From the NCBI GenBank assembly GCA_043764415.1, contig JAYUKO010000231.1:1-41445 (forward strand): DNA of 41,445 nt, written 5' to 3'. The notes below the pieces were generated by a model that was not told the DNA's origin, did no database searches, and saw nothing but the letters and a program-made list of their open reading frames with translations. Position 1 is the stretch's first letter. Every line of letters begins with the position of its first letter. Both the position numbers and the translations under genes were made by a program. Positions 10,393-34,447 of this stretch are shown here, one piece after another. The DNA comes from Bdellovibrionales bacterium. Its GTDB lineage: Bacteria > Bdellovibrionota > Bdellovibrionia > Bdellovibrionales > JAGQZY01.

Positions 10393-11016
10393 ATGGCTCA
10401 GATCAGGAAAAAAGTAAAAAAAACACCCTTATCTAAACGAAAATACAACAATACCTCACGTAGTGAGAAATCCGCACAAACCCAAAAGGCGATTATCGAG
10501 GCATTTATATCACTTCTTGTGGAACGACGAGGCGGCGAGGTCCAGCTGCAAGAAGTGGCCAAAAAAATCGGTATCGCGCAGCGAACCATCTTTCGTTTTT
10601 TTAAAGACAAAAAAACTTTGCACGACGCCATGGATAACTACCTGCTCGGGTTTTTGCAATCCAGCACGCAGCAAATGGAAACTCTGCATTTTGTGGGCTT
10701 TGCCATCAACGCGTTTAAACTTTTTGACCAACACGAATCATTGACTATGGCGTACGTTCTATCACCATTTGGGCAAGAGACACGTGTTTTGTTTCGTAAA
10801 AAATTAACACAACTGATGATTGCGCGCATTGCTGCAGAAAAAAAATTGCACGTCACTTCGCAGATGCAAAAGCGATTAGCGCTAGTAACGTGTTTGGTGA
10901 ACGCAAAAATTTGGTATGATCTCCGCGAAGATTTTGGCTACTCCGGCGAGGCCATGAGCGAGACCGTGGGCTGGGCCGTAAAATCTCTTTTGGATAACTG
11001 TGAGGACGAAGTATGA
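10393..11016 (+). CDS. TetR/AcrR family transcriptional regulator
   Basis: N-terminal HTH: LQEVAKKIGIAQRTIFRFFKDKKTL. Confidence 0.9.
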   Translation: MAQIRKKVKKTPLSKRKYNNTSRSEKSAQTQKAIIEAFISLLVERRGGEVQLQEVAKKIGIAQRTIFRFFKDKKTLHDAMDNYLLGFLQSSTQQMETLHFVGFAINAFKLFDQHESLTMAYVLSPFGQETRVLFRKKLTQLMIARIAAEKKLHVTSQMQKRLALVTCLVNAKIWYDLREDFGYSGEAMSETVGWAVKSLLDNCEDEV

Positions 11017-11819
11017 TTAAAAGAAGCCTATTTATATTAACATCCGTTTTTACAGCCGGCATTTTTTTTGGTTGCGCTACTTTATTTTCATCTCAACCTT
11101 ACGACGTGCAAAAAGACGTTATTTTTAAATCTGTCGGCAACGTCTCTTTAAAGGCCGATTTGTTTCTTCCTAAAAAAGGTAACGGGCGTCCAGCGATAGT
11201 GGTGATCCACGGTGGTTCCTGGGCAAAACGAAGCGGCGATATGGAAAGTTTGTGTAAAGACTTGGTCGCGGAGGGATTCGTTGTCATGAACGTTACGTAT
11301 CGCTTGGCTCCCGAGCATCTATATCCCAAAGCTCTCGATGACGTGCGTGACGCCATTGCGTGGCTTAAACACAGTGCCGCTCCGTTGAAGATTGATCCCG
11401 AAAAACTCTACGTATGGGGCTACTCCTCAGGTGCCCATTTGGCCCTGCTCGCCAGCCTCGATGGAACTCTTGGCGTAAAGGCAGTTGTGGCCGGCGGCAC
11501 GCCGGCTAACCTTACCGCCTGGCCCAACTCTCCACTGGTTAAAACATTTCTGGGTGTTTCGTACGCCGAAAACCAACAACTCTGGGAAAAAGCCTCCCCG
11601 GTTTTTCAAGTGAGCGAAAATTCACCCCCGGTATTTTTATACCACGGCGCCTGGGATAGCCTCGTAGAACCCGAACAGATGGACATGATGGCCGCAGCTC
11701 TACAAAAAAAGAACCGCGAAGTAAAAACCTACAGAGTATCTTTTTTCGGCCACATCGCCGTATATCTATTTAGTTATTCATCGATCGACCAAGGCATCGA
11801 ATTTATCAAAGCCCATTAA
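11013..11819 (+). CDS. Alpha/beta hydrolase (esterase/lipase), probable lipoprotein
   Basis: HGGSW oxyanion motif, YRLAP, GYSSG nucleophile, HGAWD Asp and FGH His; ATGA overlap with tetR. Confidence 0.9.
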   Translation: MIKRSLFILTSVFTAGIFFGCATLFSSQPYDVQKDVIFKSVGNVSLKADLFLPKKGNGRPAIVVIHGGSWAKRSGDMESLCKDLVAEGFVVMNVTYRLAPEHLYPKALDDVRDAIAWLKHSAAPLKIDPEKLYVWGYSSGAHLALLASLDGTLGVKAVVAGGTPANLTAWPNSPLVKTFLGVSYAENQQLWEKASPVFQVSENSPPVFLYHGAWDSLVEPEQMDMMAAALQKKNREVKTYRVSFFGHIAVYLFSYSSIDQGIEFIKAH

Positions 11820-14899: not shown

Positions 14900-15196
14900 T
14901 TACTTTACAGCGACGGTGCCTTGCCCAGCCACACGAATCACTTGTCCTTGTTTTGCGTTTTGAAATGTCAGTTGAGTGGTCGCGATTTTGCGCACACGCT
15001 CGGGGCTTGTCATGCGTGCCAGGCTCACCATGCTCAATTGTTGTCTTTGAGTGGCGCGTTTTTCTTTTTCGGCAAGCTCTAACAAAGCGTAGCCCATTCG
15101 ACGGTTTTCCATTTTTACATAAACAATGGCGAATAAAGATAACAGCAAAATAAATACGCTAAAGAATGGCTTTATATTTTCATTCAAATTTTTCAT
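14900..15196 (-). CDS. ftsL: Cell division protein FtsL-like
   Basis: One TM helix plus coiled coil ending SPERVRKIA; lies between rsmH and ftsI; GGAGG RBS before ATG 15196. Confidence 0.8.
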   Translation of the reverse strand: MKNLNENIKPFFSVFILLLSLFAIVYVKMENRRMGYALLELAEKEKRATQRQQLSMVSLARMTSPERVRKIATTQLTFQNAKQGQVIRVAGQGTVAVK

Positions 15197-16076
15197 CCGG
15201 CCTCCGCAAAAATCCACGTAGCTTCGCACTTCGCGATCGAGGATTCAGTTTTTGCTCCTCGTCGTTTGCCACAATGACCTTCTTATTAATACGATACCCG
15301 AATTCTTCGTGATCCTTAAAGATATTTTTAGCAATCCGATCCTCTAAAGAGTGAAACGTCATCACAACCAGCACTCCACCCGGGACTAAAGACCTGATCA
15401 TGCGCGGCAGACTGTCTTGCACACTCTCCAACTCCTGATTCACTCGCAAGCGAAGGCCCAAAAAATACTGCGTCGCTGGATGCTTGCCTTTTTTTTGCCA
15501 GCCGTCAATTCGCTCGATCAACCCTGCGAGCTGATGGGTTGTGGTAAACGGCTTGGTTTGTCGATCGAACAGAATGGCGCGAATCACGCGGTAGGGGCTG
15601 CGAACTTCGCCGTAATTTTTAAAAATATCAATCAAGTCTTCTTCATCCCATTCATTGATCATTGTGGCTGCCGAGATTTTTTGATTTTGATTCATCCGCA
15701 TATCCAATGGGCCGTTGTGGTAAAAACTAAATCCCCGCTCGGGATTATCCAGCTGGGGCGAGCTCACTCCTAAATCCAATAAAATAAGATCAAACGAGTC
15801 GCCATTTTGCTCGGTAAATTTTGCAAATGTTCCGTGGAACATGGTGAGGCGCCCGGGAAACTGCGGTTCGATCACTTTTTCACCGTGTTCGATGGCGGTT
15901 AAATCCTGATCCACGCCCACAACATGAAGAGTGGTATATCGCTGCATCAAAGCCGCCGAATGCCCACCGCGACCGAAGGTTCCATCCAGCAATTTGCGAG
16001 GCTCTGAAGGACCCGCATTGAAGAGTTCGATGATTTCATTGAGCATGACCGGGACATGATGATTGGATTCTGACAT
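15180..16076 (-). CDS. rsmH: 16S rRNA m4C1402 methyltransferase RsmH (MraW)
   Basis: HVPVML, DGTFGRGGHS, DLGVSSPQLD..RGFSF, PLDMRM, FHSLEDR and NPRSRSAKLR. Confidence 0.97.
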   Translation of the reverse strand: MSESNHHVPVMLNEIIELFNAGPSEPRKLLDGTFGRGGHSAALMQRYTTLHVVGVDQDLTAIEHGEKVIEPQFPGRLTMFHGTFAKFTEQNGDSFDLILLDLGVSSPQLDNPERGFSFYHNGPLDMRMNQNQKISAATMINEWDEEDLIDIFKNYGEVRSPYRVIRAILFDRQTKPFTTTHQLAGLIERIDGWQKKGKHPATQYFLGLRLRVNQELESVQDSLPRMIRSLVPGGVLVVMTFHSLEDRIAKNIFKDHEEFGYRINKKVIVANDEEQKLNPRSRSAKLRGFLRRPDEKFE

Positions 16077-23336: not shown

Positions 23337-24308
23337 ATGAAAAAGCACGAATGGTTCTATGTCCTCGCCCCGATGTTCTTTACGATTGCAATTGATCAAG
23401 CAACCAAATGGTGGGCTTTGGGACTTGCTGGTACACTGAAATATGGCCCTCTCGGGTTTGCACTGCATTTCAATAAGGGTGCGATGCTTGGATTGTTTTC
23501 TAGTCTTCCTCCGATCTTGAGAATTGTTTCTCTTTCTACGGGTGGAGCTTTTTTACTTTTTACGTTTGTTATTATTCAGTATCTTCTCCCGATCAAATCC
23601 CTTTTGTTACGCGTTGGAATGTCGACCCTCATGGGTGGAATTATCGGCAATGTGATCGATCGCACAATTCAGGGTTACGTGATCGATTTTATTTACTTCG
23701 AAGTGGGTGGCTGGCACTCTCCTGTGCTTAACGTTGCCGATGCACTTCAGTGGGTGGGTTACATTTGTTTAGTGACCGCGCTTTTAAAAGATGGCGAATT
23801 GCTGTGGCCACAAAATAATATTCGTAAATACTACTGGGTCAATCCAGCGTTTCAGTTGCGTTACTGCTTTACGCTGATGGGCATTGGTTTGGGATTTGGT
23901 CTCATCGCAGGCGTGTTTAGTTATACCTTTTTGCGCTTTATGGTGGTGGACTTGATTGGTAACAATCAAAAACTCCTCGATCAATTTTTAATTCCCTTCA
24001 TCCAAACTTATACAGCTTTCACATTGGCGTTTGGTGCGTTTTTGTTTATGATCGGTCGCTCCCTTTCTCACCGTGTGGCTGGACCGGTGTACGCCTTCGA
24101 ACGTTTTGTAAAAAACTTCGTGGCTGGCAAACCGCAAAAATTGAAATTACGCAAAAGTGATGAATTTAACCACCTAGAAGCTTTATCGCAAATGATGATG
24201 GAAAATCTTATCGTGACGGAAAAAATGGAAACTGAAATCGTTCCTATCCTCCCGCATGGGGTGGCCAACACCGTATTACCTGGTCCGAGGCACGCTCAGG
24301 TCGGCTAA
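23337..24308 (+). CDS. lspA: Signal peptidase II fused to a 2-TM/HAMP-like C-terminal module
   Basis: DQATK, NKGAMLG, GNVIDR, VIDFI and NVADA; about 160 extra residues with SHRVAGP..LRKSDEF. Confidence 0.88.
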   Translation: MKKHEWFYVLAPMFFTIAIDQATKWWALGLAGTLKYGPLGFALHFNKGAMLGLFSSLPPILRIVSLSTGGAFLLFTFVIIQYLLPIKSLLLRVGMSTLMGGIIGNVIDRTIQGYVIDFIYFEVGGWHSPVLNVADALQWVGYICLVTALLKDGELLWPQNNIRKYYWVNPAFQLRYCFTLMGIGLGFGLIAGVFSYTFLRFMVVDLIGNNQKLLDQFLIPFIQTYTAFTLAFGAFLFMIGRSLSHRVAGPVYAFERFVKNFVAGKPQKLKLRKSDEFNHLEALSQMMMENLIVTEKMETEIVPILPHGVANTVLPGPRHAQVG

Positions 24309-24367
24309 ACTGTGAACAAAAAGTAACCACTTCTAAAACTTTTACAACGTAAAGACGATGCCATTCC

Positions 24368-24387
24368 AGGTCACTGACAAGTGACCT
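24368..24387. promoter_or_regulatory. Inverted repeat AGGTCACT-N4-AGTGACCT upstream of the helicase
   Basis: Perfect 8-bp arms ending 12 nt before ATG 24400. Confidence 0.45.
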
Positions 24388-24399
24388 ATATTGCCCCTC

Positions 24400-27300
24400 A
24401 TGCGTTTAATACAATTTTTCCTGTCTCTGATGCTTCTGAGCTCAAGCCCTGTTGCCTTTGCTCAATCCCCTGAATCTTATGTCGCCCAATATGTGAAAGA
24501 GGTTCTATCCCCCCTGCTTCCGCGGATCGAAGCCGATCCCCAACAGCACCCCATTCGCACGAAAATTTCTCAAACGGAACAGGGATCTATAATTACGCTG
24601 GAAGTTCTGATTCCCGAACACAAAAAAAAGCGGAGCGAATGGAACATCTACTCCACATACAAAATTCACTTCATAGAAGGCGAATCCTACATCGCTGGTC
24701 CACCCGATGTGCGTGTTCACCGTTTTCAATCCAATAAAGGGGAATATCTTGGGCCAGCTATCGAGGGCAATCTCGTCGTCATGTACAATTCACAAAAAGA
24801 ATTGCTGAACGTCGAAGACCTCAAGGGATTCACAAGATCTCTCTTTCGTGCTGATCAAACCCTGCATCCTTTGTTTAAAAACCCTCTCCTCCCCGCTCAG
24901 AAAGCTAAGAAGCTCACTCCTCCACAGCTAGAGACTCTTACGGGAAAGAGGGAGGGGGACTATTCTCGGCCGGGACTGGTCACAATGTACCAAGACCACT
25001 TAAAACAAGGGCTCACCCATCCGCTGCATATGCTCCTCATGCTCCCAACGGGTGTTGGAAAAACAATTGTGGCTTTAAAATTTCTTGAGATGGTCAAGGC
25101 GATTCATCAGCAACAAATGCCCATGATGGTTTTTGTGGTGGAGAACAAATTGATTCTTTCGGATGTAGCAGAAAAACTGCAGGAAATCTTTCCGGGAGTA
25201 GAAACTGCGCGCTTGTTTGATACGGGCACCACCTCTGCGATAGGCAGCAACACTCGCTTTATCCTCGCAACCCGCTCTACATTTTTTAAACGAAGCCAAG
25301 AGATACTCACTCTTCTCGAACGATACAGCGGCCCGAAAGTTATTTATCGCGACGAAGCCCACCATGCCGGGAAGGTGGGAGGACAGTTTGCTGTTGTTCA
25401 TGATCAGATGATGTCTCGCCTCTCTGCCAACACGGCAGTGATTGATATGTCGGCCACTCCTTGGCATGAGACGCAGCCTGACCTGATCGCCAACTATGAC
25501 GGTCGTGTTGCAACGGCTTTTATTTCGGTGGAAGAATACAAAAACCTGATCGAGGGTGTTGAGGCCGACCGCATTGCTCGCATCCAACTTGTGCGGGCTA
25601 TCACCGAAGGCTGGCTGTCTCCACTTCAAGAACTCACTTTTATCACTGGCATGAACGATAATTTTGAGGGTTTAAGTTTTAGGAAAAAATTGCTGCGTGA
25701 ACAGCAAGCTCTCAGCGAAAAATTAGGTGCTCACCAGGACGCTTTTATCCGAGCCGATGTGGATGATATCCCCGAAGAGATTTTAAAAACTCTTCGCGAC
25801 GAAATCCGTTTTGTACATACTGCCATTATCGAAAAAGTTTTCAACGACCTGCGAGCGCAATTTCAGCGCGACCGCAACGACCGTGTGGCCGAGTACGACC
25901 GCGGTATTATCTTTGTACCTTCGATTGTACACGCTGAAATCTATAAGATATTCCTCAACGAAATGGCAAAAAGCGAAAATATGGAGTTTCGTGTCGTTCA
26001 CTCACGACAAAAACAAAGTAATTCAGTGGACGTCGTCGCTCAGAATATCGATTGGTTTAGCAGTACGCAAAACTCCCATAGACATCGATATTTAATCAGT
26101 GTGGATCTGCTTCGCGAAGGAGTGGATCTACCGTCTGCAAACAGAATCGTCTACGTGAACACATCCTCTAATATCAAAGTTCTTTTGCAAGCATTCGGTC
26201 GAGGAACGCGTTTAAGTCAGTTAAAAACTGGAATTCGCCTCACTGATTTTGGCGGCTCTTTTATACGTTTTTTTCAGGAAATTCCCGGCCACCTGTTAAA
26301 CACGCTATTTCCCGTTTTCCAATTTGATCCTAAAAGCAATGAGCCCTTTCGCAAATACACAGAAAAAAAGGGGTCTGGTATCACCCTCGATGACCAAAAG
26401 GTAAGCATCGACTCTTTAGTCAGCTTGCAAGTTGACAATCCAATGCTCGAAATTATGGAAAGAGCTCAATCAGACAAGGACTTTATCAATGATTCAGAAC
26501 TGCAAAAGTTAAAAAATGCAGAGCGCGATACTCTCAGCCAATCCACTAAAATCGCAACTCAGTTTGGTTGGAGTGTAAAAGTGGATCCACCCACCTCAAC
26601 CCAAATCAATGATTGGGTGCAGACCATCTTAGAAAGAGCAGATCTGCATCTTGATGGAAGATGGTCGATGAATGCTGAAAAAAGTACTGGGCCCAAGATT
26701 TCAAGCGATCTTTCCGAATTTATTTTTACCAACTGGAAAATGCTCAGCTTACCTTGGCAATATTTTCTGCAGGATGTTCAAATCGAACGCCTTTTTTATG
26801 ACGGGTTAAAACACCCCATGCAGAGAACTTACGAAGCCATGATGAACGACCACAGTGTCCGTTTAGGGCCTGAAAGCGGTATCCACAGAGTCTATGAGGC
26901 CTTTGTTCAAGGGAAAACCGAACTCTTTCCAGAAAGCTGGGCCGATAAAATAAAGTCTTTAACCGATTTTGAAAAAAAGCAAATTGTGGCCATTGTGAAT
27001 ATACTTTCTCTTTTGAACTCCAGCGAAGGGCGACGTCTTGTCTTAGCCGCTCCAAACGCTCCTTCTCTTTTAAAAATGATTCTACAAACAGATACTATGT
27101 CACGTGCACCCTATACACTTCCAACTAACAGACAAAAAATGGTTCCCAATTTTCAAAGATTGGGGATCACAAACCCTTGGCACTATGATTACAGGTGGGC
27201 GGAATCCTTTGAAGGAACAGAGGACTTACTAAAACTCACACGCCTTTCATCGGATGTTGCTAAACTTCGTATGCAAAGTCTTTCCGTTGGACTTCCCTTC

Positions 27301-28800
27301 GATGGGATCCATGCTCGCAATGGAAAAATTCCGTTATTCAGATTGGCCGCTTTGGCTCGTCAACTGTCGTTGCAAAATCCAGGACAAAAGCAATTTATTG
27401 CCCAGTTTGCTCAACCCCTTTTGGACGCAGATATCACACTGGGCGGTAATGCGTCTCCCCACCGCCTGACTCCTCAAGATGGCATCTTTACTCTTCACAG
27501 AGCCTACCAAGTCGATGCTTACATTAGCTCACAGGTCAGCAACATCGAGCTCTATATGATGAAGCAAGCATTGGCTGTTGAAGCCGTAAAAAACTGGGGT
27601 GTTCGCCTTCCAGATGCAGATGAGAAATTAAACTGGTTTTCTAAAATAGCCACCACTCTACAACCTCTTCCGCCGCTTCTTCTTCAAGATCTTATAGACC
27701 AAGCGCCCTTTGCCCAACGAATGATCGATCATATCGATGAATCTCACCGGCAAGCACTTCAAGCCCAACTCAAGCTCTCCGACTACAGGATGACCGGAGA
27801 TGATCTCATGGACTACCGCTCTTGGGATATACGAAACCACGGCGAAGACTATTTCGCAGAAAAATCCTACAATATGACGCTACCTAAAACTGTAAATGCT
27901 GTTTGGTGGCTGGAATATTATCGCCGTATTGTTTACAATCCCCAATTAGAAACTCTTAGCATCGCGCAAAGAGAGAAAACTTTGGATATCGTTTCAGTGC
28001 TTGCAGAGAGACTAAATTACACACATCAAGTTCCCGCGCCTTGGGCAATAACCATGAAAGACTGGTTACTGAAACCTTTGAGTCACGACGAACTTCCCAT
28101 GGACCTGAGCAGAATTAGTCTTGATGATGCCAATGGAATGGTTTTTGGTACGCGAATTTTTACCGCCCTGCCATTTTATTTTTTAGCCAAATATGGAGGA
28201 CATCTCGAAGATGTTAATGGCCTTGGCGATGTGAGATCGAAAGAAATCGTGCTTTGGTCCCAGCAATTTGGGCAGAGATATGAACAAGAACTTCAGCAAT
28301 TGAATTTAGAACGTCTATTTCATCCTTCCCCGGACGTCATGGAAATTCTGTATCAAATGCAGCTGAACCAAAGTATCGAGCCTGATAAGGCTTACCGATA
28401 CAGAGCTCTCTATGCGCATCTTGTGGAACCAATCACTGGAAGTGCCGATGACATCGCCTCCGCCAAGAAAATCGAAACTTTGATTGGCGGGGTATTAAAA
28501 ATTGATCACGTCTACTCAACGTTGAGTGTTAAAACCAAGGAGCGAGCCATCATTCTTGATCGAGCTGTTTTCGAATCTGTGATTTTAAGAAGAATCATCA
28601 TGCGAGTTTTCTTTCAACGGAGAGGGGAACCTTCAAAGAGAGATCAAAAAAACATGGGCCCCTGGGACGTGCTCGTGGACAGCCTTATCTCCTCGGAACT
28701 CAAGTCCGTGGTGGAACGCTCGCGGACGGGAATGACACTTCAAGTAACTCGGCCGGCCCCTTCTGCAGGAACAGGCTTGCGTTGCGTGGACTTGTTTTAA
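24400..28800 (+). CDS. SF2 (ResIII/DEAH-type) helicase-like ATPase with N-terminal signal peptide and long unknown C-terminus
   Basis: LPTGVGKT, DEAHH, SATP, GIIFVPS, VDLLREGVDLP and QAFGRGTR; N-terminus MRLIQFFLSLMLLSSSPVAFA-QS. Confidence 0.88.
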   Translation: MRLIQFFLSLMLLSSSPVAFAQSPESYVAQYVKEVLSPLLPRIEADPQQHPIRTKISQTEQGSIITLEVLIPEHKKKRSEWNIYSTYKIHFIEGESYIAGPPDVRVHRFQSNKGEYLGPAIEGNLVVMYNSQKELLNVEDLKGFTRSLFRADQTLHPLFKNPLLPAQKAKKLTPPQLETLTGKREGDYSRPGLVTMYQDHLKQGLTHPLHMLLMLPTGVGKTIVALKFLEMVKAIHQQQMPMMVFVVENKLILSDVAEKLQEIFPGVETARLFDTGTTSAIGSNTRFILATRSTFFKRSQEILTLLERYSGPKVIYRDEAHHAGKVGGQFAVVHDQMMSRLSANTAVIDMSATPWHETQPDLIANYDGRVATAFISVEEYKNLIEGVEADRIARIQLVRAITEGWLSPLQELTFITGMNDNFEGLSFRKKLLREQQALSEKLGAHQDAFIRADVDDIPEEILKTLRDEIRFVHTAIIEKVFNDLRAQFQRDRNDRVAEYDRGIIFVPSIVHAEIYKIFLNEMAKSENMEFRVVHSRQKQSNSVDVVAQNIDWFSSTQNSHRHRYLISVDLLREGVDLPSANRIVYVNTSSNIKVLLQAFGRGTRLSQLKTGIRLTDFGGSFIRFFQEIPGHLLNTLFPVFQFDPKSNEPFRKYTEKKGSGITLDDQKVSIDSLVSLQVDNPMLEIMERAQSDKDFINDSELQKLKNAERDTLSQSTKIATQFGWSVKVDPPTSTQINDWVQTILERADLHLDGRWSMNAEKSTGPKISSDLSEFIFTNWKMLSLPWQYFLQDVQIERLFYDGLKHPMQRTYEAMMNDHSVRLGPESGIHRVYEAFVQGKTELFPESWADKIKSLTDFEKKQIVAIVNILSLLNSSEGRRLVLAAPNAPSLLKMILQTDTMSRAPYTLPTNRQKMVPNFQRLGITNPWHYDYRWAESFEGTEDLLKLTRLSSDVAKLRMQSLSVGLPFDGIHARNGKIPLFRLAALARQLSLQNPGQKQFIAQFAQPLLDADITLGGNASPHRLTPQDGIFTLHRAYQVDAYISSQVSNIELYMMKQALAVEAVKNWGVRLPDADEKLNWFSKIATTLQPLPPLLLQDLIDQAPFAQRMIDHIDESHRQALQAQLKLSDYRMTGDDLMDYRSWDIRNHGEDYFAEKSYNMTLPKTVNAVWWLEYYRRIVYNPQLETLSIAQREKTLDIVSVLAERLNYTHQVPAPWAITMKDWLLKPLSHDELPMDLSRISLDDANGMVFGTRIFTALPFYFLAKYGGHLEDVNGLGDVRSKEIVLWSQQFGQRYEQELQQLNLERLFHPSPDVMEILYQMQLNQSIEPDKAYRYRALYAHLVEPITGSADDIASAKKIETLIGGVLKIDHVYSTLSVKTKERAIILDRAVFESVILRRIIMRVFFQRRGEPSKRDQKNMGPWDVLVDSLISSELKSVVERSRTGMTLQVTRPAPSAGTGLRCVDLF

Positions 28801-28985
28801 GGACTCAATTTCTTTTAAACTTCGGCAGACCCAACCGACCACTCGCTGTCCAGACTGGATAATTTGTCCGGTATAGTGAAATTTTGATACGAAATGCAGG
28901 GCATTTTTACTAAAAAGGTAAATAAGTATTAGCTAGATCGGCATCTAAGGTAACTTCTTCTAGTTCTTTATCAAGGAGCTTTAAG

Positions 28986-31892
28986 ATGCCTATCTTCGCA
29001 ATTCTCTTCGTTTTACTTTTGAATTTTTTTGCTTCAGCCGATCAAAATCCCTCATCGGTATTGAGCCCCTCCGCACAAAGCCCCTTTTCGACCAAAGAAG
29101 CTCAAGTCAATGTGATCATCAACGGCAATCGTGCGAGTCGCGAATCGCGAGAGATGTATTTAATTTTAAAAACTCTTCAGCAGTCTCAGACCGACTACTT
29201 AGAAAATCCAGAAAAATTTAAAGTTCTTGAGAGCTTTACGTCGGGCGAACCTCCTCGACAAATGACTCAAGATGAAGTGGCGTTGATGTATTTTAGTAAA
29301 CTCGTAGCAGACGAGCAGATTTCTTATACCATCCGACCTCCAGATTGGTTTGAAGCTGCAAAACATTTAGTCCCCAGCTTGGGGCTCGATATAAGCCCTC
29401 TAGATCCGATTTTCGATGGCCTAACCCTCCAAGGAAATCCTCCCCTCACCTGGGAGATTGAAGCCCAGGGAATGAATCCTGGTGCCTTGCTTGTCTCTCT
29501 GGATGGGCAGCCTGGGCAGCTTGGCACTTTAGCTCGGGATAGTTTTAAACAACTTTATGGATACGATTTGAACGAAAATTTACTGATGACCAAAGAGCTT
29601 AGAGATGCTGAATTCATCTATGAACAAAACCAAAACGACACGCTTCTCTTTAATGAAATGGGCAAGCTGAATAAGCAAGTCGAAGAATTTAATCGCCAGC
29701 AACTGAAATGGAATCAACAGCTGCAGGCTGCTAAAACACAGGAAGAAAAAGCTGCGCTTCAAAGAAAAGAAAAAATTGATCTCGAAATGCGTCGCAATGA
29801 AATTCGTGGCGGCCTGCAGATGACGTCGACCGTGCTTCAGCTCACCGGGAACCCTGAGGCGGCGCAAGCAGCCTCGAATATTTCACAGCTTGCAGAAATA
29901 ACCTTTTCCCTTCTTGATGGCACTACGGCCGCAGGTGTTCCGCTGGGACCTCTAGCCACGGCCAATCTGTATACTTCCGGAGCTGCAGTGCTAGTTTCCA
30001 TGCTTTCGAATTCAAAGGGAAAATCGGAGATGGAAGCTATCATGGCACAACTTCAAGCAATTTTTGATTTACTCAATGATACAAGAAAAGAAATGCACGA
30101 ACGCTTCGATCTTGTGGATATGAAGTTAGATTATCTAATTTACCGAATTGACTCTGGACTTCACGCTTTACAAGCCAGCAGCGAGAGAATTGAAGAGAAC
30201 TTGGCAAATATTCAGATCGCGATCGACGATCTGCACGCCAGTAATCAGCAATTTGTATTGGATCTTTACAGTCGACTTACATTCGATGATATAAGCATTT
30301 GTCTTCCACGTGATCAGGGATTTAGTCCTCCTATATCGTCACAAGATTTTTATAAGTGTTTTTTAAGCCTTGAAAACAATTTGTATAGTTACTCGGCTTA
30401 CGGTTACGATTCTTTGTCGAAGGGTGATCAAAGTATTGAAAACGTCACCTTAGATATTTTTAGTTTTCCGTATGTGTCCGCACTTCCGCGGTTGATCCAA
30501 AAATTACGCAATGAATATCAGGTGCCCATTCAAAATGAAGCCAGTGTTCTCAATCCATACGTTTGGAACCGCCATGTTCAATCATTAATGCTTATGTGGT
30601 CGGCGCACCCACAGTACTCCAAAGAGTATGGAACTGTGGAAATTCAAAAGGCCATTGATACCGCCGATGAAATTCAAACCCTTTACGGGTCCTTGGCATT
30701 AAATAGGGAAGACAGCGGTAGAAAAATTATCAATATACCGCTATTTGAGAAATTGAAGGAAAATTACCAAAACCTCGTTGCGACTACCCTGGAATGGATG
30801 GATGCAGCGGTTAGAAACAATAATGACTTACGCATCAATCCTTCGCTCGTACAAAATGTTAAAAATCAAGATCTACCACACATTTCGCAAGCAAATCAGA
30901 TGATTGCTGCTTGTTCGGGCCAAACCAGTTTTGGGGTGGCCCACCTAACGGCCAATGGATTTTTACCTTTTTCAAAAACCTCTAGCTATCAAATACCTCC
31001 CATCAATAGTACTTGGGAAAATTTTAATTTGTTGAAAAACTTAAAAGATGTTGCTCCATCAAATCTTTCCATGTGGCCTACTGCATTTTATGCATTGCCT
31101 AATGAGTTTCTAAATCATGAGAAACGATTTCCCGGTTCAGTAGCAATTTGCATACAAAAATTTATTTTTAACTCTTGGATTCAGGAGAATCAATCGAGCA
31201 CAGCTGATTTATCAATCGTTCTTGAGACAAGAATCAACGGCGCCACTGTAGCTACAGCTAACATCGATCAAAAACTATTTTTCGAAGGTATTGATGAGAT
31301 CGCACAAAAATTGAATATCATAAGACCCAAATCACATTTATCTATCGTTAGAACTGACCCCGAAGCGTGGGATTTTGGTAAATACATCGAGTTGTATAGT
31401 ATTTACTGGAATCAAAATACAGTTGAAAGCAAACTTCCAACAAACGGCATTATTACGAAAAATTTCTTAGATGTCGGTAAGTGGGAACTACGAGTCAATA
31501 GAGGTGTAATGCAGCAGCAGGCCCGGGAGCGCATTCAAAATGACCCAGATTACAAAGCTCGTAGAACGCAGATCAACGAAACTCGAAATATGATGCGAAT
31601 TCTACTGGAGATCGGCTTGAGTGACGCTGCTCCAAATAAGTTTGAAGCACAGTCTTTGCTTCGCGAAGCCTATGGTATCGTGCCTAAAGGGTTGCGATCA
31701 TTGGACGCCTTGGCTGATCAGTATTTAACGGGGCATTATACGGAAAAAGAGATTTTGACGCAAACGAGTCTCGCCGGATCGGCACTTATTGATTTACTGA
31801 AAATCATGAACACTTCTCATGTTCCACTGGAACCAAGAAATGCCGCCATCGATACTTCGATAGAATATCTGCAGACGCTCTTAGTTTTCTAA
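28986..31892 (+). CDS. Secreted coiled-coil protein with central hydrophobic segment (pore-forming-toxin-like), 968 aa
   Basis: AGGAG RBS; signal peptide ..LLNFFASA-DQ; coiled coils flank AAGVPLGPLATANLYTSGAAVLVSML. The function is inferred. Confidence 0.6.
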   Translation: MPIFAILFVLLLNFFASADQNPSSVLSPSAQSPFSTKEAQVNVIINGNRASRESREMYLILKTLQQSQTDYLENPEKFKVLESFTSGEPPRQMTQDEVALMYFSKLVADEQISYTIRPPDWFEAAKHLVPSLGLDISPLDPIFDGLTLQGNPPLTWEIEAQGMNPGALLVSLDGQPGQLGTLARDSFKQLYGYDLNENLLMTKELRDAEFIYEQNQNDTLLFNEMGKLNKQVEEFNRQQLKWNQQLQAAKTQEEKAALQRKEKIDLEMRRNEIRGGLQMTSTVLQLTGNPEAAQAASNISQLAEITFSLLDGTTAAGVPLGPLATANLYTSGAAVLVSMLSNSKGKSEMEAIMAQLQAIFDLLNDTRKEMHERFDLVDMKLDYLIYRIDSGLHALQASSERIEENLANIQIAIDDLHASNQQFVLDLYSRLTFDDISICLPRDQGFSPPISSQDFYKCFLSLENNLYSYSAYGYDSLSKGDQSIENVTLDIFSFPYVSALPRLIQKLRNEYQVPIQNEASVLNPYVWNRHVQSLMLMWSAHPQYSKEYGTVEIQKAIDTADEIQTLYGSLALNREDSGRKIINIPLFEKLKENYQNLVATTLEWMDAAVRNNNDLRINPSLVQNVKNQDLPHISQANQMIAACSGQTSFGVAHLTANGFLPFSKTSSYQIPPINSTWENFNLLKNLKDVAPSNLSMWPTAFYALPNEFLNHEKRFPGSVAICIQKFIFNSWIQENQSSTADLSIVLETRINGATVATANIDQKLFFEGIDEIAQKLNIIRPKSHLSIVRTDPEAWDFGKYIELYSIYWNQNTVESKLPTNGIITKNFLDVGKWELRVNRGVMQQQARERIQNDPDYKARRTQINETRNMMRILLEIGLSDAAPNKFEAQSLLREAYGIVPKGLRSLDALADQYLTGHYTEKEILTQTSLAGSALIDLLKIMNTSHVPLEPRNAAIDTSIEYLQTLLVF

Positions 31893-33628: not shown

Positions 33629-34447
33629 ATGATCACGACCAGTTTAAATTCGACTTTTATCGGCTTTGACACAGAGACCACAGGCAAATACCCCATCGAA
33701 TCAGAGATCTGCGAAATCGCCGCTGCTAAATATCTTAACGGCGAAATCATTGATACATTTCAGTCACTCATCAAGCCCGTTCGACCAATGGGTGAGGAAG
33801 TGATTAAAATCCACGGAATCACCAACGAAATGGTGCAGGATGCTCCCGCTCTGAAGGATGTTCTCCCTGGGTTCCATAAGTTTATCCAAGATGGAACTCT
33901 GATTGCCCACCACGCGCCCTTTGATCTGGGTTTTATCTCTGTGGGCTTTGAAGCCTGCGGCCTGGAGCTGCCATCAAAGCCTGTGATCTGCAGCAGCCGT
34001 CTTTCGCGCAATGTGATTAAGGATTCCAAAAATCACAAGCTACAAACTCTCATCCCTCACTTGGGCATTACCCAGGGTGCAGCCCATCGCGCACTCGACG
34101 ACGCCATCGCCTGCTTGCAAGTGGCCTTGCACTGTATCGAACGCGCGCAGCTCACATCGCTCGAAGATGTGTTTCAAATGCAAGATGGCGAGCTTTATTG
34201 GAAAGACTACTCCATGGATGAGCTAAAATTTAAAACAAAGAGCTTAGGGATTTTGATCGAAGCCATGTATCAGCGCACCCGGGTGCGCATGACCTACAAA
34301 AACGGTGGCTCCCCCGGCCGCGAGCGCCTCATCGAGCCCATCGGCCTTGTGCGCTCTCCCGATGGTGACTTTTTTGTGGCCTACGACGACAGCCCCATCG
34401 CCAAGCGCTTTTACATCAGCAAGCTTGGCGATGTGACAAAAATTTAA
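33629..34447 (+). CDS. DEDDh 3'-5' exonuclease (DnaQ-like) with C-terminal WYL domain
   Basis: FDTETTG, AHHAPFD and HRALDD; C-terminal MTY..RERLIEPIGL..FFVAYD..KRFYISKL. Confidence 0.85.
   Translation: MITTSLNSTFIGFDTETTGKYPIESEICEIAAAKYLNGEIIDTFQSLIKPVRPMGEEVIKIHGITNEMVQDAPALKDVLPGFHKFIQDGTLIAHHAPFDLGFISVGFEACGLELPSKPVICSSRLSRNVIKDSKNHKLQTLIPHLGITQGAAHRALDDAIACLQVALHCIERAQLTSLEDVFQMQDGELYWKDYSMDELKFKTKSLGILIEAMYQRTRVRMTYKNGGSPGRERLIEPIGLVRSPDGDFFVAYDDSPIAKRFYISKLGDVTKI

Follow-up and report, generated by a model that had tools for sequence, protein, structure and literature searches.

Helicases and AAA+ machines are classically regarded as enzymes of the cytoplasm. We analyzed a 41,445-nucleotide stretch of DNA from a Bdellovibrionales bacterium (the window; contig JAYUKO010000231.1 of a metagenome-assembled genome (MAG) that is 81% complete and comprises 403 contigs), and we focused on the gene at positions 24400..28800, which encodes a putative superfamily 2 (SF2) helicase that we call P0001. 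Two groups of described proteins are closest to P0001. The protein is like the ResIII/DEAD-type helicases of restriction and defense systems (PbeA, the type IV mREase 7clg, type I HsdR, and Dnd-associated helicases) in having two RecA-like domains and the accompanying motifs. Unlike those helicases, P0001 is without a methyltransferase, a system partner, or a recognizable nuclease domain, and it has a signal peptide, its own N-terminal domain, an 800-residue helical C-terminal region, and a terminal cysteine tag. Its predicted fold, including a helical insertion between the RecA domains, is also like that of the duplex translocases Dicer, RIG-I, MDA5, DRH-1, Chd1, ISWI, Snf2, RadD, FANCM, and LlaBIII. 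Those proteins, however, share 12-16% sequence identity with P0001, are cytoplasmic or nuclear, and have neither the N-terminal domain and C-terminal region nor the signal peptide and tag. P0001 is an SF2 motor in an architecture without precedent, that of a putatively exported and tagged protein. At the level of its sequence, it carries an intact and conserved SF2 NTPase together with a conserved Sec-type signal.

The SF2 core and its flanking regions

The gene encodes 1466 amino acids plus a stop on the plus strand, from ATG 24400 to stop 28800, with an alternative TTG start for the same reading frame at 24391. Its G+C content of 0.42-0.47 is similar to that of the remainder of the window. 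All features of P0001 given below are on the plus strand. Pfam matches, sequence motifs, and the AlphaFold2 (AF2) fold each place the protein in SF2. Pfam identified ResIII at residues 206-354 (E = 4.4e-13), Helicase_C at residues 498-605 (E = 1.1e-10), and DEAD (E = 9.5e-8), all over the cut-offs, and gave no match beyond approximately residue 640. The core (residues 196-640; 24985..26319) consists of two RecA-like domains with the helical insertion between them, and contains motif I (Walker A) PTGVGKT at 25045..25065, motif II DEAH at 25351..25362, and motif VI QAFGRGTR at 26188..26211, along with motif III (SAT) and motif V (EGVDLP). The Walker A glycine and lysine, the aspartate and glutamate of motif II, and the glutamine and both arginines of motif VI are invariant in family alignments, both across 11 and across 26 aligned members. 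An AF2 model of residues 22-655, built from a 26-row alignment, had a predicted local distance difference test score (pLDDT) of 84 and a predicted template modeling score of 0.86. When this core was searched with Foldseek, duplex translocases were nearest (E = 1e-13 to 1e-11, probability 1.0, template modeling score 0.38-0.45), including an ancestral Dicer helicase, DRH-1, RIG-I, MDA5, LGP2, Chd1, ISWI, Snf2, RadD, FANCM, and the type ISP enzyme LlaBIII.

The best outside matches by sequence were PbeA (E = 2.3e-9), a type IV mREase (3.8e-7), Protein Data Bank (PDB) entry 7clg (7.6e-6), and a Dnd restriction model (1.3e-5). All matches to restriction and defense helicases were partial and far below the family cut-offs, for example 24 bits against a cut-off of 600 bits. 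The nearest shorter helicases among 5.8 billion proteins were 22% identical to P0001 (E = 4e-6); they are 527-543 residues long, lack a signal peptide, and contain several cysteines. Because the outside matches are partial or below cut-off, and because the nearest helicases are only 22% identical, we conclude that sequence comparison places this helicase family on an isolated branch of SF2. Two specific identities were considered and rejected. PbeA of the PbeABCD system aligned over residues 201-341 only, at 34 bits, and the downstream neighbor of P0001 had no PADLOC match. A helicase subunit of a restriction-modification (R-M) system would be expected beside its partner DNA methyltransferase (Mod/HsdM), and the operon contains none.

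The core is preceded by a family-specific, beta-rich domain (residues 22-195; 24463..24984; mean pLDDT 84 in the AF2 model), which closes with a Q-like motif, LTPPQ, at 24913-24927. A search with residues 22-200 found no relatives of this domain among shorter proteins, and ESM Atlas scores were below 0.8. The core is followed by an all-helical region that is restricted to the family (residues 641-1443; 26320..28728), and then by a disordered linker of proline, alanine, serine, and glycine that leads into the terminal tag GLRCVDLF (28729..28797, with the tag codons at 28783-28797). Residues 656-1466 had just seven relatives among 1.84 billion representative sequences, all of them from the same family, and matched no Pfam or NCBIfam model. 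Fold searches with the C-terminal 811 residues were equally uninformative: Foldseek against the PDB returned no match at E <= 0.001 with a model of pLDDT 62.5, a wide fold search gave generic helical hairpins alone (Z <= 6.3 over approximately 65 residues), and the ESM Atlas gave no usable match. Three relatives of approximately 2040 residues (P0008, P0009, and P0013) contain the C-terminal helical module twice, with the motif W..LSLPWYY occurring two times, and the module can evidently be duplicated as a whole.

These results bear on the original prediction, which was made by reading the window's letters and described intact SF2 motifs behind a signal peptide, followed by about 800 residues that could not be assigned. 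Both descriptions held. The first is confirmed by Pfam, the motif positions, the invariant residues, and the predicted cleavage site described below, and the second by the lack of a Pfam or NCBIfam model or a meaningful fold match. A nuclease fold, which had been proposed as something to look for in the C-terminal region, was not found by Foldseek in the model of that region. The interpretation offered at the time, an exported helicase derived from a defense system, can now be divided. At the sequence level the exported SF2 ATPase stands, with a signal in 26 of 26 family members. The defense-derived origin is possible but weakly supported, because the matches are partial and sub-cut-off, the nearest outside helicases are only 22% identical, and in fold the protein is no further from Dicer/RIG-I, Snf2, and RadD.

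A Sec-type signal across the helicase family

P0001 begins with a predicted Sec-type signal peptide, MRLIQFFLSLMLLSSSPVAFA (residues 1-21; 24400..24462), which ends in a predicted signal peptidase I (SPase I) site, AFA/QS, directly after which the mature chain starts with QSPES. We judged signal peptides by rules for the n-, h-, and c-regions and by conservation, with a basic n-region, approximately 7-15 hydrophobic residues, small residues at -3 and -1, and the lack of any further transmembrane segment taken to indicate Sec. By these heuristic rules P0001 reads as a Sec/SPase I substrate, with M-R as the n-region, LIQFFLSLMLL as the h-region, and SSSPVAFA/QS as the c-region. A lipoprotein (SPase II) reading was rejected, as there is no lipobox and no cysteine in residues 1-1461. 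A Tat substrate was likewise rejected, as the n-region M-R-L-I-Q has a single arginine and no twin-arginine motif. The protein has no second strongly hydrophobic segment: a single 19-mer reaches a Kyte-Doolittle value of 1.6, and another near residue 211, which overlaps the Walker A strand, is weaker (1.51). The charge pattern at the N-terminus is basic ahead of the hydrophobic core and acidic or polar past it. Together with the lack of a second hydrophobic segment, this pattern argues that, with or without cleavage of the signal, most of P0001 would be located outside the cytoplasm.

A word-based search recovered 10 relatives of P0001, and in all of them one or two basic residues at the start are followed by a short hydrophobic stretch and then by a small-x-small site; P0010 has approximately 47 additional residues ahead of its signal, and its start is probably mis-called. 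When 300 other Bdellovibrionota genomes were searched with a profile, a shorter, distant subfamily of the helicase (approximately 1150-1390 residues) was identified in 15 of them, distributed over three bacterial families (10 of 34 genomes in f15, 4 of 4 in f27, and 1 of 2 in f30). A signal-type N-terminus opens the reading frame in 15 of the 16 distant loci returned; the remaining locus, L011, has a broken 5' part and was left out of the scoring. In total, the n/h/c architecture was present in 26 of 26 family sequences, with the distant members being 21-32% identical to P0001. Our script called a cleavage site in 24 of the 26, and the sites of the other two could be read by eye (SFA/QD and IQA/QT). 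The script also found the uncharged run of the hydrophobic core to be 8-20 residues long. Among family members the signal keeps its character but not its letters, which is what selection for export produces. A further scan of metagenome loci with the family alignment gave five weak matches to the helicase core at 26-29% identity, which were of no use for comparing neighborhoods.

Family conservation sets in right after the signal peptide, and the next methionine of P0001 outside the h-region is at approximately residue 127, within the conserved N-terminal domain. For both reasons, a start downstream of the hydrophobic segment is excluded, and the export signal is not a start-codon artifact. 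Two expectations of the original prediction, that the start would not lie downstream of the hydrophobic segment and that homologs would also carry signal peptides, are thereby borne out. We consider it probable that P0001 is exported.

The genomic neighborhoods bear on an alternative in which P0001 is not exported, its N-terminus either anchors it in the membrane or has no relevance, and P0001 is a cytoplasm-facing defense helicase in a variable slot resembling a defense island. As expected from the original prediction, which had noted no methyltransferase nearby and would have lost ground had homologs been found in R-M or defense operons, our scan of the window's open reading frames (ORFs) detected no R-M system or DNA methyltransferase near the helicase. 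The sole methyltransferase among the scanned ORFs is of the MraW/RsmH type, at 15180-16076 beside a penicillin-binding protein gene, approximately 8 kb upstream. Among 12 loci of the distant subfamily, 10 have a conserved, divergently transcribed, secreted neighbor that we call c1 (365-430 residues, no Pfam family), and eight have a TetR regulator. A defense helicase would agree with the best outside sequence matches, which are restriction and defense helicases, and with the variation of the slot between strains (see below). However, the lysine or arginine before the hydrophobic core and the acidic or polar residues after it predict an N-in, C-out topology, the short hydrophobic core leads into AXA, and the signal occurs in all 26 members. 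In addition, no methyltransferase, nuclease, or other defense gene adjoins the helicase here or at the distant loci, the mature chain is almost free of cysteine and bears a tag common to periplasmic enzyme types, and the matches to defense models are partial and far below cut-off. Taken together, we regard a cytoplasmic defense helicase as quite unlikely. If it were nonetheless correct, then conserved signal-peptide-like N-termini, here on 26 of 26 family members, can mislead.

A cysteine motif at either end of the mature chain

The final residues of P0001, GLRCVDLF, contain Cys1462, which is the sole cysteine of the 1445-residue mature protein. At the genomic cysteine frequency of 1.12%, a run of 1440 residues without cysteine has a probability of approximately 9e-8, and P0001 is longer than any other of the 58 ORFs that have one cysteine or none past residue 30 (out of 333 ORFs with 500 residues or more). 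The last 23 residues are disordered in the AF2 model. A single terminal cysteine, 5-17 residues from the end, is also found in P0002-P0010, P0012, and P0013. The tag reads CVDLF in P0002 and P0003, CKAALGF in P0004, CKAIL... in P0005, CTQLF in P0006, CKALLAN in P0007, CSQVFGE in P0008, CSQIFAI in P0009, CDDVLTD in P0010, CSAFL in P0012, and CSQIFK in P0013.

We scanned 2388 crude ORFs of the window's genome for the motif C-x-x-[LIVM]-F. The motif was exactly C-terminal in eight ORFs compared with 0.52 expected (Poisson 8e-8), and one residue short of the C-terminus in three more. All 11 of these ORFs have signal-peptide-like N-termini, and in 10 of them the motif cysteine is the sole cysteine after residue 30. 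The motif is also piled up just past signal peptides, with 42 starts in residues 10-29 compared with approximately 7 expected (14, 17, 25, 12, 6, 6, 4, 4, 3, and 2 starts in successive 10-residue bins). After lipobox-like and cysteine-rich cases were removed, 25 proteins read as a signal peptide followed by AXA-x(2-5)-C-x-x-[LIV]-F, mostly without another cysteine, and one of these N-terminally tagged proteins reads RCVDLF, as in the tail of the helicase. The consensus of both versions is L-x-C-x-[DE]-[LI]-F, which occurs at 10 C-termini and at 25 N-termini past a signal peptide, or 35 of 2388 ORFs. In the distant helicase subfamily the C-terminal tag is absent and a conserved cysteine lies 3-10 residues past the signal peptide, corresponding to the N-terminal version.

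Several of the tagged proteins belong to recognizable families. Those tagged at the C-terminus include a ClpA/ClpB-like double AAA+ protein of 848 residues (Pfam/NCBIfam), a Clp-D2-like AAA+ domain fused to an FtsH-type M41 peptidase (1345 residues, with no second hydrophobic segment), and an amidoligase plus ATP-grasp protein of 806 residues, as well as an FAD oxidoreductase, a 5'-nucleotidase, a protein with a weak trypsin-like match, and a DUF7790 protein. Of 20 N-terminally tagged proteins scanned, 13 matched no family, and the other seven were a bpMoxR AAA+ protein, its von Willebrand factor A (vWA) partner, an EEP nuclease/phosphatase, a ParB-like nuclease, a C1-like peptidase, a TPR protein, and a marginal DUF559 match. 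The MoxR and vWA proteins of this genome thus each have a signal peptide and the N-terminal version of the tag. Orthologs of the tagged double AAA+ protein keep both signal and tag (CKELF) in two genomes of the same genus, at 93% and 87% identity, and a relative that is 30% identical, in another bacterial family, f6, keeps the signal and a CSALF tag; a fourth signal-bearing relative (L059) has no tag. Examples of tagged genes in the window's genome (G000) are C180:3810-6356, C265:3070-7107, C112:874-4646, C155:19652-25630, C263:2777-5209, and C322:306-7215. With these results, we conclude that the terminal cysteine motif is statistically robust in sequence and is common to periplasmic enzyme types and to NTP-dependent machines other than the helicase. 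It is found beyond the window's genus, and may have been expanded here. Its presence on approximately 35 putatively exported proteins, several of them ATP-driven, suggests a toolkit that works outside the predator cytoplasm.

Short terminal motifs that direct sorting or modification include the CaaX box, the -CTERM domains of exosortase, rhombosortase, and myxosortase systems, the C-terminal domain of the type IX secretion system (T9SS), and the lipobox. The tag is like this group in being a short terminal motif with an invariant cysteine and a flexible tail, found on unrelated exported proteins, and it is unlike all of them in appearing at either end of the mature chain. It differs from CaaX in having four residues after the cysteine rather than three, and a CaaX reading was rejected for this reason: the cysteine is fifth from the end (C-V-D-L-F), not fourth, and fifth to seventeenth in the homologs. 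A -CTERM reading (PEP-, GlyGly-, or MYXO-) was also rejected, because the protein stops four residues past the cysteine, with no C-terminal hydrophobic segment and no NCBIfam match; where -CTERM domains have a transmembrane helix and basic cluster, the tag has neither. Unlike T9SS substrates, the tagged proteins lack the beta domain of approximately 80 residues. Unlike the lipobox cysteine, the cysteine of the N-terminal tag is 3-6 residues past the AXA site and is preceded by Q, R, or S at -1. The order L-x-C-x-E resembles the LxCxE motif by which eukaryotic proteins bind Rb, but we had no grounds for relating the two. No NCBIfam model covered the tag in 22 tagged proteins, and no untagged gene recurred as a candidate sorting enzyme among 171 proteins in the neighborhoods of the 35 tagged genes. 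Three lipoprotein-like ORFs of the genome have a lipobox cysteine followed by A-T-L-F (window 11013-11819 on the plus strand, G000:C86:3556-5802, and G000:C28:50-1186). The spacing, C-x-x-L-F, is that of the tag and is perhaps a hint that the tag is connected with lipoprotein handling.

A lone cysteine could also serve to pair proteins. In this explanation P0001 is the exported half of a disulfide-linked complex in which each partner contributes one terminal cysteine motif, and the motor works on an envelope protein or polymer rather than on nucleic acid. Tagged genes are often paired or in operons (an N-tagged with a C-tagged gene in both C112 and C263, and MoxR with vWA in C155). In the distant subfamily the helicase cysteine comes right after the signal peptide, and the neighbor c1 (e.g. 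L029:7725-8903 and L024:7874-8971, within loci L022-L033) has a cysteine 8-24 residues from its C-terminus in nine of nine intact copies. These arrangements hint that terminal cysteines may pair partners. For P0001 itself, however, no tagged partner adjoins the helicase gene, c1 had no match in this 81%-complete genome, and the SF2 core resembles nucleic-acid translocases. The downstream neighbor, a signal-peptide protein of 968 residues described below, was rejected as a partner, because it has no tag, contains four cysteines, and is missing from the slot in L002 and G274. We consider a disulfide-linked envelope motor very unlikely.

A proposed site of action and the genomic slot

Our favored explanation is that P0001 is a Sec-exported, ATP-dependent SF2 translocase on duplex nucleic acids that serves as an effector using prey ATP, and that it is one of a group of exported proteins, specific to this lineage, whose mark is a terminal L-x-C-x-[DE]-[LI]-F. 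We judge this full chain to be evenly balanced between right and wrong. The unfolded pre-protein would pass through Sec across the inner membrane, and SPase I would cleave after AFA21, a step for which the sequence argues strongly. The flexible C-terminal tail and its sole thiol would then mediate a second step shared by the tagged proteins, for which the candidates are sorting across the outer membrane, or disulfide or lipid tethering to a carrier, a partner, or a membrane. Because catalysis appears to be conserved, P0001 would work where NTP exists, most plausibly in a space derived from prey, either the cytoplasm of the prey cell or a bdelloplast that leaks, and this is the weakest step of the proposal. 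There the motor would translocate along the DNA or RNA of the prey, or strip proteins off it, beside the tagged nucleases, unfoldase, and proteases. The helical C-terminal 800 residues would probably be a scaffold for binding a substrate or partner, not a nuclease.

An exported P0001 need not burn ATP in prey. The core could instead be a nucleic-acid-binding module, independent of NTP or only occasionally fueled, that is anchored through its cysteine at the surface, in the periplasm, or on vesicles, with a possible role in capturing or handling extracellular or prey-released DNA. The evidence for export is the same for such a module, a lone cysteine on a disordered tail suits a tether, three lipoproteins of the genome begin their mature chain with C-A-T-L-F in the spacing of the tag, and the periplasm is accepted to lack ATP. 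On the other hand, the Walker A lysine, the motif II aspartate and glutamate, and the motif VI glutamine and arginines do not vary among 26 sequences, the most distant at 21% identity, which argues for retained catalysis, and several other tagged proteins are obligate ATPases. We therefore regard a tethered, largely unfueled module as unlikely.

The favored explanation can also be extended to the whole tagged set. In this bolder and less certain claim, a previously undescribed two-part address, consisting of a Sec signal and a terminal cysteine tag at either end, would send an ATP-driven arsenal (the SF2 helicase, the Clp-type unfoldase, the FtsH-like protease, MoxR-vWA, the ATP-grasp ligase, and nucleases) into prey, where it would run on prey ATP to dismantle the nucleoid and proteome. 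We consider such a tag-defined secretome possible, though doubtful.

Several points weigh against an effector that is powered by prey. All support for the export and function of P0001 is computational. The periplasm lacks ATP, and we know of no established route from the predator periplasm into the prey cytoplasm. The helicase family is found in 0 of 6 other genomes of the window's own family and in just 15 of 300 other genomes of the phylum, all with the subfamily that has its tag at the N-terminus, and as a result the helicase is not a core predation gene. The tag is rarer in two other genomes, small 400-kb samples of which gave 1 tagged ORF in 348 and 2 in 331, each with the N-terminal version, compared with 35 of 2388 here. 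Outside the core, neither a nuclease nor a nucleic-acid-specific accessory domain was recognized by Pfam, NCBIfam, or fold searches, and the C-terminal 811 residues were modeled as helical with a mediocre pLDDT of 62.5. Finally, variable genomic slots are also typical of defense islands, and a strain-variable slot such as the one described below fits an effector arsenal and a defense island equally.

Export of intact NTP-dependent motors would contradict the rule of an ATP-free periplasm, and P0001, if the proposal is true, would be the first known exported helicase effector. If these proteins are exported and active, then predators would deliver energy-dependent machines that exploit the victim's ATP, a new principle of prey dismantling. 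The terminal cysteine tag offers a concrete handle, as it is open to mutation and to the mapping of its modification by mass spectrometry, and it allows the effector set to be listed from sequence alone; it may also serve as an address label for engineered predators. Full-text literature searches turned up no account of an exported helicase, or of a tag of this kind, in Bdellovibrio-like bacteria, an absence that is not proof of nothing in print. The portions available of PMC2797640, PMC3526173, bioRxiv 10.1101/2023.11.21.568195, and PMC12622784 contain nothing on the helicase family or the tag.

The helicase gene is located in a slot between an LspA paralog and dsbD that is hypervariable within the genus (window 24309-31880; L002, L134, L135, and L136). 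In G274 the slot is empty and the flanking proteins are 93-98% identical; in L002 it contains the helicase alone; in this window it contains the helicase and the 968-residue signal-peptide protein (28986-31892, plus strand), which has no Pfam, NCBIfam, or PADLOC family; in G253 it contains a different signal-peptide protein of 659 residues; and in G335 it contains two other genes. The fillings other than the helicase are mostly signal-peptide proteins as well. Because the content of the slot varies within the genus, the helicase is, by these genome comparisons, an accessory, strain-variable gene. The nearest named relative, from a MAG also called 'Bdellovibrionales bacterium', has the same gene at 93% identity and was the sole near-identical MAG in a contig scan.

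The LspA paralog upstream of the slot (23337-24308, plus strand) is a second Peptidase_A8 homolog of 323 residues with a C-terminal extension of approximately 170 residues, and the canonical lspA is elsewhere in the genome (G000:C130:853-1272). Of 81 genomes of the order, 80 have the extension, with the helicase or without it. We considered the paralog as an enzyme that processes the tag but found no specific support for this, the gene being order-wide. Other neighbors of P0001 are an S13 carboxypeptidase, a solute-binding protein, a GGDEF response regulator, DsbD, and a prolyl oligopeptidase, and we conclude that the helicase is surrounded by ordinary envelope and housekeeping genes. Further downstream, at 33629-34447 on the plus strand, the window encodes an RNase T-type exonuclease fused to a WYL domain.

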